Assembly: GCA_030646675.1 (NCBI GenBank)
Contig: JAUSKX010000006.1
Location: 1-44,828, forward strand
Reading direction: 5' to 3'
From: Candidatus Azambacteria bacterium
Lineage (GTDB): Bacteria; Patescibacteriota; Minisyncoccia; UBA10092
DNA: 44,828 nucleotides
Positions 1 through 32,488 of the stretch are shown piece after piece. The notes beneath the pieces were generated by a model. It was not told the origin of the DNA. It was given only the letters and a program-made list of their open reading frames with translations, and searched no databases. Position 1 is the stretch's first letter, and every line of letters begins with the position of its first letter. The translations under genes were made by a program, and so were the position numbers.

Positions 1-10
1 TCTTTTCGTA

Positions 11-90
11 CCAGGTAGTGAAACTTTGACAACACAATTGTTAAAAACAATTGTGTTAATGCTGAAAGCGGTCAAAGTTCTACTACCTGG
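11..90. repeat. Palindromic intergenic element, copy A
   Basis: 20-nt arms ccaggtagtgaaactttgac (11-30) and gtcaaagttctactacctgg (71-90) enclose an inner palindrome (aacacaattgtt...aacaattgtgtt). Related to the copies at 2874-2940 and 31664-31766. The nrnA stop codon lies inside the right arm. Confidence 0.8.
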
Positions 91-1045: not shown

Positions 1046-1391
1046 CTTTTATTTCTTCTCTTACTTCGTTCAATAATTTTTCCACTTCGCCGGCCTCTTC
1101 CGGATTCGTGTCGCGCTTGAAAATAATTTTCGGAACCGGACGGACTTTTAATTTTTTATTCAATAGCTGCTGGATTTGGTAAATCGTACGTTTTAGTTTG
1201 TCCATAATAGCGGTTGTTTCGCTAGTCGGGAATACGCTTATGAAAACAATAGCGGAAAATAAATTGGCGTGGGTTAAAACGCGCGTAACGGTAACCAAGA
1301 CTCCGGGTTTAACGTCCAGAAATTCAAATACAATTTTGCCCAGTTCTTTTTTGAGAAGTTCATTAAATTTTTCGGCGCGTTCCTGACCCAT
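1035..1391 (-). CDS. rbfA: Ribosome-binding factor A
   Basis: 118-aa ORF with an RbfA-like N-terminus (ERAEKFNELLKKELGKIV...). Sits directly downstream of infB, the classic order. Confidence 0.85.
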   Translation of the reverse strand: MGQERAEKFNELLKKELGKIVFEFLDVKPGVLVTVTRVLTHANLFSAIVFISVFPTSETTAIMDKLKRTIYQIQQLLNKKLKVRPVPKIIFKRDTNPEEAGEVEKLLNEVREEIKDEK

Positions 1392-2872
1392 TATATTTTT
1401 TTGAAAAACACGATAGTGTCGCCGGCTAATATTTTGGGGTCGCCGAAATCAATACCTATCCCCGTTTCGTGGCCGGCCTCAACTTTACCGATGTCTTTTT
1501 TGTCCGATTGCAAACTGGTGACTTTTCCTTTGCCGATTGCCGCGTCGTTTCTAAAAACTTCCAATTTCACGCCTTTCAGTATTTCTCCGGAAATAACTTT
1601 ACCGCCGACAATTTGTTTGTTTTTTTCCTGTCTGAAATTCGCCAAGACGCTAAGCCGTCCGATTTCTTCAATTTCAATTTTGGGCTTGAGTTTTTTTTCA
1701 ACGACGATTTTAGTCTGGTCCAAAATATCGTAAATAATATTTCCGGAAATCAAATTCTCTTTTTGTTTTTCGGTAACGATTATGTTCGGTTCGTTCTTTA
1801 CATTGAAGGAGAGAATAATGGCGCTGCCCATATCCGCCAATCTCAAATCGCTGTCGTTGATATTGCCGGCTTCGGCTTTCAACACTTTGACCCGGCCGTT
1901 CTCGAAAGAGATTTTTTCCAAACTTTCTTTAAGGGCTTCAACCGAACTTTGAACATCGGCTTTTATTATAATATTGACGGTGGCGATGGCGTCGCCAGGC
2001 GCGGCTTCAAATAATTTTTCAATAAACCCGCCTATTTTGGCGGCGGTTTTTAATGCCGGTGAAAAGGGGATTTCGGAAGTGGTAAATTTATCTCCGACAA
2101 GCGGCAATGTGGAAAAACCGATAACCAAAACTGGAGAAGAAAATGTGGCGCTTTCAATCGGTTTGCCCAAAAAATCCTCAAGCATTTTTATTTTACCGGT
2201 CGCTTCTCCGCTTAAAACATAATCGCCGGTTTTTAACGAGCCGTCCAAAATAAGAAGCGAGGCGACAATGCCGCGGCGAGGGTCCATATTGGTTTCTATA
2301 ACAATTCCTTCTCCCGGTTTTTGAGTGTCGGCTTTAAAATCATTTATTTCGGCCATGAGTTCAATCAAATCAAGAAGCTGCTCTATATTTGTTCCTTCTT
2401 TTGCCGAAATTTCAACCGATGGTATTTTACCGCCCCATGATTCGACCAGCGCGTCATTTTCGGTAAGTTCTTTTTTAACTTTTTCGGGATTGGCATCTGG
2501 CTTGTCCATTTTACTTATGGCGACTATGAAGGGCAGATTAGCCTCTTTAATATGGTTAAGCGCTTCAATGGTTTGCGGCTTTACGCCGTCGTCGGCGGCC
2601 ACGACCAAAATGGCGATGTCCGCGGCTTTAACGCCCCGGCCGCGCAATTTTGAAAACGCTTCATGGCCCGGCGTGTCCAAAAAAGTTATTTTTCGGTTTT
2701 TATAAACGATTTCATAAGCGCCGATATGCTGGGTGATGCCGCCGGCTTCGTGCTCGGCGACGGTTGTTTTCCTTATATAATCAAGAAGCTTTGTTTTGCC
2801 ATGGTCAACGTGCCCCATTATTACGACAACGGGCGGGCGATTAATTAAAGTTTTGTTTTTTTCATCTGGCAT
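1391..2872 (-). CDS. infB: Translation initiation factor IF-2 (short form)
   Basis: 493 aa with GTPase motifs GHVDHGKT, DTPGHEAF and SKMD. The long N-terminal region of enterobacterial IF-2 is absent. Confidence 0.93.
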   Translation of the reverse strand: MPDEKNKTLINRPPVVVIMGHVDHGKTKLLDYIRKTTVAEHEAGGITQHIGAYEIVYKNRKITFLDTPGHEAFSKLRGRGVKAADIAILVVAADDGVKPQTIEALNHIKEANLPFIVAISKMDKPDANPEKVKKELTENDALVESWGGKIPSVEISAKEGTNIEQLLDLIELMAEINDFKADTQKPGEGIVIETNMDPRRGIVASLLILDGSLKTGDYVLSGEATGKIKMLEDFLGKPIESATFSSPVLVIGFSTLPLVGDKFTTSEIPFSPALKTAAKIGGFIEKLFEAAPGDAIATVNIIIKADVQSSVEALKESLEKISFENGRVKVLKAEAGNINDSDLRLADMGSAIILSFNVKNEPNIIVTEKQKENLISGNIIYDILDQTKIVVEKKLKPKIEIEEIGRLSVLANFRQEKNKQIVGGKVISGEILKGVKLEVFRNDAAIGKGKVTSLQSDKKDIGKVEAGHETGIGIDFGDPKILAGDTIVFFKKI

Positions 2873-2873
2873 A

Positions 2874-2940
2874 CCAGGAAGTAGAAATTCGACAATAATA
2901 ATTATTATTGCCAGGCAAATGTCGAATTTTCACTTCCTGG
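2874..2940. repeat. Palindromic intergenic element, copy B
   Basis: Arms ccaggaagtagaaattcgaca (2874-2894) and tgtcgaattttcacttcctgg (2920-2940). Same arm consensus as copies A and C. Ends 2 nt from the infB ATG. Confidence 0.8.
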
Positions 2941-2954
2941 CATAACCCGAAAAT

Positions 2955-2990
2955 TGTACAACAAAAACCGCCTTTCTGCAAGGCGGTTTT
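2955..2990 (-). terminator. Rho-independent terminator after tRNA-Ser(UGA)
   Basis: Hairpin aaaaccgcctt/aaggcggtttt (2964-2990), followed on the minus strand by a T-run. Confidence 0.7.
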
Positions 2991-30398: not shown

Positions 30399-30540
30399 AG
30401 TGATTTTGTGAGACAATTCTAGCAAATTTCAGTTATAATTTCAATAGATTGACCAGTTCGACAAGCTCATGGTCAATCCTGAGTCCGTCGAAGGATTGAC
30501 AAAAGTTTAATTTGTGATAATCTTGCCCAATATATTACTT

Positions 30541-31671
30541 ATGGAAGCCCAGGCGGAAATTTTGGCCAGAAATATAGGAATGCAAAACTTGGCGGCAAAA
30601 ATGCCGCGAAGTTTTAATTTGCCTAAAGTCGGCGATGTCGTTGAAGGGCGAGTGCTCAAAAAAAGCGCCCGCACTTTATATTTTGATTTGGGACTCTGGG
30701 GTGTCGGCATTGTTTATGGAATAGAATTTTCCAACGCCCAATCAATAATAAAAAATTTAAAAATCGGCGACACAGCTTTTGTAAAAATTTCGGAAATTGA
30801 AAACGATGGAGGCTTCAAAGAGCTTTCATTGGCCGAAGCTCAAAGCCAGAAATCCTGGGATTTGATAAGAGAATACAAACGAACCAATAAAGTTTTTGCC
30901 ACAAAAATTTTAAGCGTCAACCGCGGCGGCATGATGATTGAAATAAGCGGCGTGGCGGGATTTTTGCCCGTTTCCCAATTATCCGGCGAACATTATCCGC
31001 GGGTTGAAGGCGGCGATAAAAACAAAATTTTGGAAGAACTTTCAAAATTTGTCGGTCAGGATTTCAATGTCAGAGTTTTGGATTTTGATTCCAGGGAAAA
31101 TAAATTGATTGTTTCGGAAAAAGCGGCCGAAGAAGAACATTTGAAAAAGGCGCTAGGCAAGCACCAAATCGGCGATGTTGTCGCCGGCACGATTTCCGGC
31201 ATTGTTGACTGGGGAGCTTTCATAAAATGGCCCTCCGACGAAGAAACGCTTGAAGGGCTTATACATATTTCCGAACTTGACTGGCAATTGATAGAAAGCC
31301 CGGCTGATTTCGTGAAAGTTGGCGATAGCGTATCCGCAAAAATCATTGACATCGCCAATGACCGGATTTCTTTGTCGTTAAAACAACTAAAGCCCGACCC
31401 ATGGAAAATTGCCTCGGCTTTTCTTGAAAAAGGAATGCTCGTTGAGGGCTTTGTCAAAAAATATAATTCCTTTGGCACGTTTGTCGAGGTAGCCTATCCG
31501 TCGCCGGAGGGGGGTAAAAACGAAACGCTTCAGGGTCTTTGCCATATTTCCGAATTTGGTTCCGATGAAAAAATGAAAAACGCTTTGGGAGTCGGAAAAA
31601 AATACCAATTTAAAATTTTGGCCTTCGTTCCGGAAGACCATCGAATGAGTTTAGGACCATTGACCGGGTAG
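30541..31671 (+). CDS. rpsA: 30S ribosomal protein S1-like (four S1 domains)
   Basis: Repeated S1 signatures (VGDVVEGRVL, IGDTAFVKI, IGDVVAGTISGIVDWGAFI, KGMLVEGFVKKYNSFGTFVEV). Start is uncertain (30541, 30580 or 30601). The stop lies inside element C. Confidence 0.8.
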   Translation: MEAQAEILARNIGMQNLAAKMPRSFNLPKVGDVVEGRVLKKSARTLYFDLGLWGVGIVYGIEFSNAQSIIKNLKIGDTAFVKISEIENDGGFKELSLAEAQSQKSWDLIREYKRTNKVFATKILSVNRGGMMIEISGVAGFLPVSQLSGEHYPRVEGGDKNKILEELSKFVGQDFNVRVLDFDSRENKLIVSEKAAEEEHLKKALGKHQIGDVVAGTISGIVDWGAFIKWPSDEETLEGLIHISELDWQLIESPADFVKVGDSVSAKIIDIANDRISLSLKQLKPDPWKIASAFLEKGMLVEGFVKKYNSFGTFVEVAYPSPEGGKNETLQGLCHISEFGSDEKMKNALGVGKKYQFKILAFVPEDHRMSLGPLTG

Positions 31672-31766
31672 TGAAAATTCGACTTTTTAATTGCCGCCCT
31701 TGGCGGCGTTGCCAGGCAGTAGAGCTTTGCTTCACTGCCTGGCGTTGTCGAATTTCTACTACCCGG
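31664..31766. repeat. Palindromic intergenic element, copy C (with nested hairpins)
   Basis: Arms ccgggtagtgaaaattcgac (31664-31683) and gtcgaatttctactacccgg (31747-31766). The interior has gccgcccttggcggc and a nested gccaggcagtagag...cttcactgcctggc hairpin of the same arm type. Confidence 0.85.
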
Positions 31767-31795
31767 TTGACAAACATCTAAACTTGTAGTATATT
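31767..31795 (+). promoter_or_regulatory. Near-consensus sigma-70 promoter
   Basis: TTGACA (31767-31772), 17-nt spacer, TATATT (31790-31795). Abuts element C. Confidence 0.65.
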
Positions 31796-31855
31796 CTAAC
31801 CCAGTTAATAAGGGGTAATTTTTAGTCGTAACTTAACATTTTAATAAGAAAGGGG

Positions 31856-32488
31856 GTGAAAAAATTGGGAGAAAGGATTTGGAACAAGTTCCACCCGATT
31901 TTCGGACCCGATTTGAAAGTTGGGTTCGAAACCACGTTTCCGAAGGGGGCGGTTTTAGACCTGGACCCGCTTTACGAAAGGAGTGGTTTAGTCCACAAGC
32001 CGCCAAATGAAAAAACGGTGAGAGTCTACGAACCGGCGAGGATTTTCTGCTCCTGCTTAGACAGCAAGGCAACGAATGTTCTGTTTGTGTCAGTGTCGCA
32101 AAAGGGGTCTCTATTCCGCCGATTGGTATTTGCGCGGAAGATAGGAGATAATGGACTACCCCGCCGGTGGATGGTTGCCGCTCGTTTTGATGAGGTGACA
32201 CATTTTGGGTTCGACTCCTGGAATTCCAGGAATCAGCGCTATCTGGCGCTGGCGTATCCCGAACAGGAGGAATTTACGCCGGTATACGTGAAAATTCAGA
32301 ATGTCGGCACCGGCGGCTTCGTTTATCTCGAGCTTTGGGCTTATGACGACGGAGTCCAAGTTCTATTCACGGCGCGCCGCGTCAACGAGGATACGGTGCC
32401 GGAGCATTTGCTCTTGGCAACCCCGTGGGAAAAGCCACAAGAAAAAAAGCCTTTGACGGCAACTCTGGCAACAGCTTCAGTTAGATAA
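31856..32488 (+). CDS. Hypothetical protein (GC-rich island, gene 1)
   Basis: 210-aa ORF with a GTG start preceded by a purine-rich aagaaaggggg. No motif I recognise. Confidence 0.55.
   Translation: MKKLGERIWNKFHPIFGPDLKVGFETTFPKGAVLDLDPLYERSGLVHKPPNEKTVRVYEPARIFCSCLDSKATNVLFVSVSQKGSLFRRLVFARKIGDNGLPRRWMVAARFDEVTHFGFDSWNSRNQRYLALAYPEQEEFTPVYVKIQNVGTGGFVYLELWAYDDGVQVLFTARRVNEDTVPEHLLLATPWEKPQEKKPLTATLATASVR

Follow-up and report, generated by a model that had tools for sequence, protein, structure and literature searches.

Palindromic elements at gene borders of a Candidatus Azambacteria genome are probably miniature relatives of a Patescibacteria element that carries a GIY-YIG nuclease gene

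Three genes in the 44,828-nucleotide stretch of Candidatus Azambacteria DNA analyzed here (assembly GCA_030646675.1, contig JAUSKX010000006.1, which is contig C22 in our numbering; hereafter the window) begin or end at the very edge of a palindromic element, and this arrangement raises the question of what the element is and how it came to lie there. A first-pass annotation, made from the letters of the window, had described three copies (A, 11-90; B, 2874-2940; C, 31664-31766) with terminal inverted arms of about 20 nucleotides (nt), and had likened them to repetitive extragenic palindromic (REP) sequences or miniature inverted-repeat transposable elements (MITEs). Our analysis makes it very probable that these palindromes are non-autonomous miniature copies, i.e., MITEs, of a family from Patescibacteria whose full form of about 310 bp carries a tiny gene for a GIY-YIG nuclease.

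When we searched the window for the arm consensus with up to three mismatches permitted, six arms were recovered, which form the three pairs already described (Table 1), and all six match the consensus without a single mismatch; 0.09 matches are expected in shuffled sequence. A search of the whole assembly (448 kb in 30 contigs, with an estimated completeness of 92%) detected five extra copies (C7:12395-12464, C11:469-548, C12:23261-23339, C13:3100-3163, and C24:24827-24906). The genome hence possesses eight gene-less copies, each 64 to 103 bp in length, that are spread over six contigs. Each of them is built from one arm with GA and one arm with AG at a particular dinucleotide, the GA arm of the C7 copy having drifted to GG. 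This asymmetry had already been noticed for the three copies of the window, in all of which one arm reads GTAGTGAAA and the arm on the opposite strand GTAGTAGAA (GTGAAA versus GTAGAA); copy B is oriented opposite to copies A and C.

The palindromes are insertions. With the copies oriented GA arm first, all eight are flanked on both sides by 4-bp direct repeats, one of these with a single base change. We compared the orthologous sites in five congeners (G001-G005), in none of which a canonical arm was found, and each of the seven sites with both flanks comparable proved to be empty in at least one congener, where a single 4-mer takes the place of the repeat. At the site of copy C, G005 reads gagtttaggactaTTGAcaaatatctaaacttatagtatatt, with a single TTGA in contrast to the TTGA-element-TTGA arrangement found here; the site is empty in G001 to G004 as well, and all five congeners have a single TTGA within TTGACA. 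The copy B site contains a single CATA in G003 and a single CATT in G005, the congeners possess a single CATA at the start codon beside which the C13 copy resides, the C24 site holds a single CTTG in G003, G004, and G005, and the C11 and C12 sites hold a single TAAG in congeners. The C7 site has a single TCAA in G001; this copy is older, since G005 carries the element at the same place. As copy A lies 10 nt from the contig start, its comparison was confined to the target 4-mer and the right flank; a single CGTA was found in G002 and G003. The comparison of orthologous intergenic regions proposed in the first-pass annotation thus did reveal insertion footprints, in the form of empty sites with a single 4-mer.

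Traces of the opposite process were sought as well. In G002, the closest congener, the site orthologous to C24:24827-24906 (L177:1488-1504, i.e., contig C14 of G002) contains a 17-bp relic, CCCAGTAGGCTACCGGG, between two CTTG repeats; it is made up of 8 nt from the outer end of each arm and one additional base, the upstream gene still has its stop TAG within it, and it could be an excision or deletion footprint. A search of 401 genomes for excision footprints of the form CCNGGTAG..CTACCNGG returned two matches, both without duplications and probably due to chance, and the empty allele of copy C had no exact match in metagenomes. Two independent insertions, at C11:459-472 and C12:23251-23264, struck the same native motif, TGTGGATAAG/TAAGTTT, which holds a perfect DnaA-box-like TTATCCACA on the other strand and is intact in the congeners.

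How far the family extends became apparent from an exact search of one genome per species, supplemented with loci from relatives, which provided 88 paired elements beyond the eight own copies. Nearly all of these stem from assemblies of Parcubacteria, Saccharibacteria, Moranbacteria, Nealsonbacteria, and similar groups, and the distribution of canonical arms is patchy (10 of 61 relatives). An exact 4-bp duplication is present in 66 of the 88 elements (chance 1/256; p~1e-139), and the GA/AG asymmetry in 87. In 107 distinct elements, arm positions 1-9 and 12-20 form Watson-Crick pairs in 93-100% of cases, with compensatory double changes at positions 3, 4, 6, 14, 17, and 20, while position 10 is G:T in 106 and position 11 is A:C in 105 elements; the left arm served as the search seed, so that the independent evidence comes from the partner arm alone, and this partner is invariant. 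Copies beyond the three of the window thus exist and nearly all of them conserve the dinucleotide asymmetry, contrary to what would have refuted the first-pass annotation. The arm head (positions 1-13), whose conserved 12-13 nt read CCNNGTAGT(GA/AG)AA, is common to all subfamilies, and the tail (positions 14-20) varies among them.

Folded as DNA, both strands of every window copy give a long stem that is interrupted at GA/AG by a 2x2 internal loop and has a branched interior (z = -8 to -10). A three-way junction is common to five 80-bp copies; of its 33 pairs, 13 have undergone compensating double changes, including nearly every pair of the first inner hairpin. Since so many pairs are compensated, the interior is kept as a shape and not as a sequence, which suggests that a folded single strand of DNA or RNA is a functional form. 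In Rfam, nothing but tRNAs reached the gathering score in the window, and a sensitive Rfam scan of the eight copies returned microRNA-like hairpin noise below threshold and no family.

The link to a nuclease comes from longer relatives. L014, an element of 314 bp that has the arms described above and duplicates TACG, encodes a 93-residue GIY-YIG protein (Pfam, E=1e-16); among solved structures, the UPF0213 proteins 1ZG2 and 1YWL come nearest to it. Homologues of this nuclease were present in 319 of 401 genomes of the class, often in several copies, and at 19 of the 30 best homologue loci the gene is enclosed by an element of 295-350 bp that has the family's arm head, the GA/AG mismatch, and a 4-bp duplication, mostly TATG. 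The open reading frame (ORF) of about 90 residues fills the long element, ends at the inner border of the distal arm, and always runs in the TATG direction. A full-length element of genome G250 has arms identical to those of copy C over the 16 inner bases searched (arm positions 5-20). An element of 125 bp (L057) has kept the first and the last parts of the nuclease ORF; judged from its sequence, it is an internal deletion of a full-length element, and such a form is the expected intermediate on the way from long to short copies. Neither an arm pair more than about 350 bp apart nor one enclosing another gene was found among the eight own copies, the 88 relatives, and the 30 nuclease loci, and at no examined locus did an arm pair enclose a conventional transposase. 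A full-length partner with ACTTTGAC arms was absent from a metagenome search, which is a weak negative in that the gap allowed (230-260) is smaller than most full-length interiors (255-310). Our full-text literature search found no description of a bacterial inverted-repeat element that carries only a GIY-YIG gene.

These features suggest how the short copies might have arisen and moved. They would be internal-deletion derivatives that retained the ends and the fold-conserved core of the long form. When one of their strands folds, the 20-bp stem is perfect except for a double mismatch, G·T plus A·C. A GIY-YIG nuclease of the UPF0213/YhbQ type would act in trans to cut the ends of the element and/or its target, and it may recognize the mismatched foldback form; we regard this role of the nuclease as having about an even chance of being correct. 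Insertion favors TATG at start codons, at which the ATG is restored by the duplication, and also uses sites such as the TTGA of a -35 hexamer. The GTAG core, which would exist for the element's own reasons, places TAG, followed by TGA or TAG, in one frame at each end, so that a gene hit near its 3' end in the stop frame loses only two or three residues and the insertion survives, as at rpsA and nrnA. Only tentatively do we put forward the most far-reaching version of this model, in which the form of about 310 bp would be an autonomous transposon with the GIY-YIG nuclease as its sole protein, the mismatch would mark an extruded or single-stranded foldback substrate, and insertion would be actively aimed at start codons and promoter hexamers instead of being merely tolerated there. 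To our knowledge, GIY-YIG nucleases are not known to drive any prokaryotic DNA transposon.

The choice of target is far from uniform. Among the 88 relatives, the duplication is TATG in 36 elements, another NATG in 6, and CATA (TATG on the other strand) in 6. Of the 52 TATG/CATA insertions, 45 coincide precisely with the start of an ORF that spans 60 codons or more; about 30% would be expected from tolerance alone (p=4e-17), as calculated from the 363 non-coding TATG versus the 156 TATG start codons of the own genome. The host ATG has the AG arm as its neighbor 39 times and the GA arm 6 times (p=5e-7), and the same ratio holds for gene-bearing forms. A Shine-Dalgarno (SD)-like motif precedes only 10-13% of the predicted starts on those contigs of the own genome that belong to the Candidate Phyla Radiation (CPR), as judged from crude ORF calls, and this scarcity may be the reason why it is tolerated that the upstream region is moved about 70-150 bp away from the ATG. 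Three further ideas about these insertions found little support. Tight translational coupling through the ORF that opens at the duplicated ATG is not general, as gaps to the host ATG range from 21 to 111 nt with a median of 68; targeting of leaderless genes is unconvincing (a -10 box 4-9 nt upstream in 11 of 48 targets versus 15-17% of predicted starts); and general targeting of -35 regions (2 of 30 non-ATG insertions versus 3 of 210 control windows) is suggestive at most.

What the insertions do to the host genes can be seen at each copy of the window. The S1-domain (rpsA-like) gene (30514-31671) ends at the TAG of the arm at 31669-31671, which is followed by TGA, and its product terminates in LGPLTG here versus LGLLTNI in G005. 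On the minus strand, the DHH/DHHA1 (nrnA-like) gene (83-1045) ends at the TAG at 83-85, with a second TAG at 80-82, and the C-terminus reads KYSR here versus KYARK in G002. The first-pass annotation was therefore right in stating that rpsA and nrnA use stop codons of the arms. It was also right in placing copy C next to a TTGACA promoter (TTGACA-17-TATATT), yet this is a host promoter outside the element: the G005 site is empty with a single TTGA, the sites of G001-G004 are empty also, and the promoter is therefore ancestral, situated within the final codons of the S1 gene. Copy C hit the first four bases of its -35 hexamer, with the TAG of the arm becoming the new stop of the S1 gene. Copy B adjoins the start codon of infB (1391-2872, minus strand; IF-2 domains confirmed). 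Upstream of copy B, the duplicated ATG opens a 12-codon ORF (2941-2979, minus strand; MPGSENSTFAWQ, then a stop) that runs into the element ahead of infB, and the host infB ATG directly follows the arm without an SD-like motif.

In one of the three frames, the arm head supplies a pair of stop codons, TAG then TGA in the GA arm and TAG then TAG in the AG arm. Such tandem stops, which had been predicted for copies A and C with their GGT head, are indeed found there; the stop function itself is not limited to these copies, since copy B (GGAAG) provides a single TGA or TAG at offset 8 of that frame. Tabulated against stop codons, as had been proposed, 12 of the 19 ORFs that enter an arm and have 100 codons or more stop at offset 5 or 8 (p=0.007 versus one third), and 13 of 20 do so if copy A is counted. 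In the arm variants GGAAG and GGCAG, which have lost the first TAG, the ORFs stop at offset 8, the second stop acting as a back-up. The GA/AG asymmetry is not accounted for by these stops, given that either version of the arm has another one after the TAG. As both arms give two stops, a single frame is protected, and most copies reside at gene starts, the simplest reading is that the stop codons are a tolerated by-product of the conserved GTAG core that is filtered by selection, and we see no evidence of design. No T-run accompanies the arms of the window, which run into TTGACA, AGTATT, or CATAAC, and no terminator-like site was detected in 31400-32000. A role as terminator is thus not supported, and of the combination of translation stop, hairpin, and possibly termination that the first-pass annotation had envisaged, the stop and the stable hairpin stand and termination finds no support.

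Table 1. Coordinates of the element copies in the window, their target duplications, and associated features; the last five lines give the duplications of the eight copies of the genome (oriented GA arm first).
Feature	Position	Strand	Remarks
Left target duplication of copy A, CGTA	7-10		Right repeat 91-94 is AGTA, one base changed
Copy A, 80 bp	11-90	+	GA arm 11-30, AG arm 71-90; interior with two hairpins, giving a predicted three-way junction
TAG-TAG in AG arm of copy A	80-85	-	TAG 83-85 is the stop of the DHH/DHHA1 gene
Target duplication of copy B, CATA (TATG on gene strand)	2870-2873	-	Contains the infB start codon; second repeat 2941-2944
Copy B, 67 bp	2874-2940	-	GGAAG arm variant; GA arm 2921-2940 first, AG arm 2874-2893 adjoins the IF-2 start codon
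Left target duplication of copy C, TTGA	31660-31663	+	Right repeat 31767-31770 forms the first four bases of the -35 hexamer
Copy C, 103 bp	31664-31766	+	GA arm 31664-31683, AG arm 31747-31766; interior with GC hairpin 31693-31707 and nested mini-hairpin
TAG-TGA in GA arm of copy C	31669-31674	+	TAG is the present stop of the S1-domain gene
Nested 31-nt mini-hairpin in copy C	31712-31742	-	CCAGGCAGTAGA gctttgc TTCACTGCCTGG; 12-nt arm heads
Ancestral host promoter TTGACA-17-TATATT	31767-31795	+	Begins right behind copy C; G002 and G005 conserve it at their empty sites
Duplication TATG			2 copies
Duplication TTGA			2 copies
Duplication CTTA			2 copies
Duplication CTTG			1 copy
Duplication CGTA/AGTA			1 copy

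Some elements depart from the standard architecture. The nested hairpin with the same arm head that the first-pass annotation had seen in copy C was located at 31712-31742; it retains the GA/AG difference, in the orientation opposite to that of the outer arms, and is bracketed by direct CGTTG repeats at 31707-31711 and 31743-31747. Free-standing mini-hairpins of 29-42 nt, which consist of 12-nt arm heads and a short loop and likewise keep GA/AG, occur in other CPR genomes at L212:1413, L140:4500, L092:557, and L217:713-726, and that of L212 has a 5-bp direct repeat (CTTTG) on both sides, as is the case with the mini-hairpin nested in copy C; the minimal mobile unit may be the arm heads alone. 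One 157-bp element (L062) consists of an element nested inside another. There are few places at which a GA arm faces a GA arm, namely the composites L018 and L023 of genome G006 and a Portnoybacteria contig (PEYL01000069; L101:2392-2453); at the latter, two GA arms face each other without a mismatch amid more arm fragments, and this locus looks like a head-to-head or rearranged element cluster. Viral contigs yielded three exact arm matches, none with a partner arm.

Several observations weigh against a miniature family mobilized by a GIY-YIG nuclease. Our genome contains no full-length element, and its only GIY-YIG gene (C14:4369-4602), which encodes a stand-alone protein of 78 amino acids with a Pfam GIY-YIG match of E=8e-14, lacks arms and is 35% identical to the element-borne protein. 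Within the genus, the presence of GIY-YIG genes does not track the arms, G002 having three such genes and one element relic. The polarity of the element relative to the nuclease ORF can be either way, with the GA arm near the ORF start in 16 cases and the AG arm in 3, and GA/AG therefore does not determine which way the ORF runs. The nuclease is tied to the arms by association only, from which the role of the enzyme is deduced, and a nuclease by itself cannot join DNA. Moreover, the ORFs behind the frame and start-codon statistics were called crudely, by length only, and the null expectation for these statistics comes from the own genome alone. Some arguments favor a classical MITE moved by an unseen conventional transposase, of the DDE type or another, with the GIY-YIG gene as cargo or as a selfish homing-type nuclease: duplications of 4 bp and inverted ends of 20 bp are what one typically sees in insertion sequences driven by a transposase, the only enzyme in sight is a lone nuclease of 90 amino acids without known strand-transfer activity, and the own genome has MITEs but no arm-flanked nuclease gene. 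We nevertheless consider this explanation unlikely, given that no longer arm pair and no arm pair with another gene turned up at the loci surveyed, that the nuclease ORF occupies the whole long element, and that most genomes of the class contain the nuclease family in multiple copies. Directly upstream of the stand-alone nuclease gene, at C14:4603-4690, lie a tRNA gene and then a clamped hairpin (CCTTCGC...GCGAAGG) containing CCAGTAGATTGCGAAGG, which bears a loose likeness to the AG arm.

A host-selected cis element for ending translation and transcription, that is, a stop cassette with a terminator or RNA-processing hairpin, would account for the stops in one frame on each strand, for the frequency with which ORFs entering an arm end there, for the very stable fold, and for the covariation that conserves the interior. 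It is very unlikely all the same, because 45 of the 88 copies reside at start codons and not at gene ends, congeners without the element use ordinary stop codons at the same sites, terminator-like features are missing, stops are offered in only one of three frames, and the distribution is patchy, with canonical arms in none of the five congeners. Hardly credible is a REP-type element (5' GTAG) spread by a REP-associated tyrosine transposase (RAYT). The invariant GTAG of the arms and a RAYT/IS200-like protein encoded by the own genome at C11:6428-7108 speak for it, yet the palindrome on either side of that gene is another one, CGATAGGTTTCSGAAACCTATCG, it is GIY-YIG genes that lie between the arms in other genomes, and 4-bp target duplications are present, whereas none are known from elements of Y1 transposases (IS200/IS605, REP/RAYT). 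Of the REP/MITE-like label given by the first-pass annotation, the MITE part is hence borne out by inverted ends, 4-bp duplications, empty orthologous sites, the lack of coding capacity, and longer gene-bearing relatives, and the REP part has to be dropped. The RAYT/IS200-like ORF (226 amino acids; Pfam Y1_Tnp, 29 bits) lies between CGATAGGTTTCSGAAACCTATCG palindromes at C11:6394-7135, and CGATAGGTTTCSGAAACCTATCG occurs four times in the genome (C10:10261, C11:3068, C11:6397, and C11:7110); ORF and palindromes give the impression of a REP/RAYT-like system of its own, small in size, within this CPR genome. Two of the three Y1_Tnp matches fall on high-G+C contigs and are probable contamination; nine short contigs (C2, C6, C9, C16-C18, C20, C27, and C29) have 59-69% G+C versus 39-44% for the remaining ones and probably represent binning contamination.

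If the palindromes are miniature copies of a nuclease-bearing element, as we think very probable, several known systems offer themselves for comparison. REP/RAYT systems share palindromic repeats with a conserved GTAG, but the elements described here differ by their target duplications, their longer composite units, and their lack of a link to the own RAYT-like gene. The Correia (CREE/NEMIS) elements of Neisseria are gene-less units of 60-155 bp with 26-bp inverted repeats that form a long hairpin, duplicate TA at their target, reside at gene boundaries, and can alter the ends and promoters of host genes. By this description, our elements resemble them in being gene-less, in their inverted ends, hairpin fold, and target duplications, in their gene-boundary sites, and in their capacity to change the ends and promoters of host genes, and are set apart by ends that read CCNNGTAGT... 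and differ at one dinucleotide, by duplications of 4 bp that are mostly TATG, and by gene-bearing relatives with a GIY-YIG nuclease instead of a known transposase. Rickettsia palindromic elements (RPEs) are mostly in-frame inserts within genes, and we know of no autonomous partner for them. As with RPEs, hairpin repeats are tolerated here at or inside essential genes of a reduced genome; unlike RPEs, they reside mostly at start codons and have a gene-bearing form. In one 83-bp element (L130), a 445-codon ORF passes through in frame (83 + 4 bp = 29 codons).

The closest enzymatic parallel is Ssn, which, according to the sections of the article consulted, is a GIY-YIG protein of about 90 residues whose gene is bracketed by hairpin-forming repeats (NTS/SRM) that are also dispersed in the genome, and which cuts only single-stranded, folded DNA beside its hairpin (Chenal et al., 2025, Nat Commun, PMC11893778). 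In both cases, a single-domain protein of about 90 amino acids is encoded by an ORF that is flanked by a repeat on both sides, and the cleavage of folded single strands by Ssn offers a precedent, by analogy, for the putative recognition of a foldback form. The differences are nonetheless considerable. Here, the repeats are the two 20-bp inverted ends of a discrete unit with a 4-bp target duplication, whereas the NTS are hairpins of about 30 bp, and the consulted sections on Ssn mention neither target duplication nor mobility (PMC11893778). Ssn is placed in CDD family cd10448 (PMC11893778); the solved structures closest to the element-borne nuclease are UPF0213 proteins. When we searched the 88 elements on either strand for the SRM motif (HGTCWYN(0-2)YYVSBRHN(0-5)WNVSBRGN(0-2)RNCYNB), none matched, and a control NTS sequence did.

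Should the nuclease indeed move these elements, no smaller self-contained transposon would be known to us, and their mobility would depend on an enzymatic mechanism new to transposition. Irrespective of which enzyme is responsible, essential genes (those for IF-2, ribosomal protein S1, and NrnA) have their exact starts, ends, and promoters rewritten by this family, in genomes that have almost no spare DNA. The family also shows how a selfish element can survive in so tight a genome: the ATG is rebuilt at the landing site, and the stop codons that the element carries limit the damage to gene ends. For annotation, this means that the start and stop codons of CPR genes beside such hairpins are easily miscalled.

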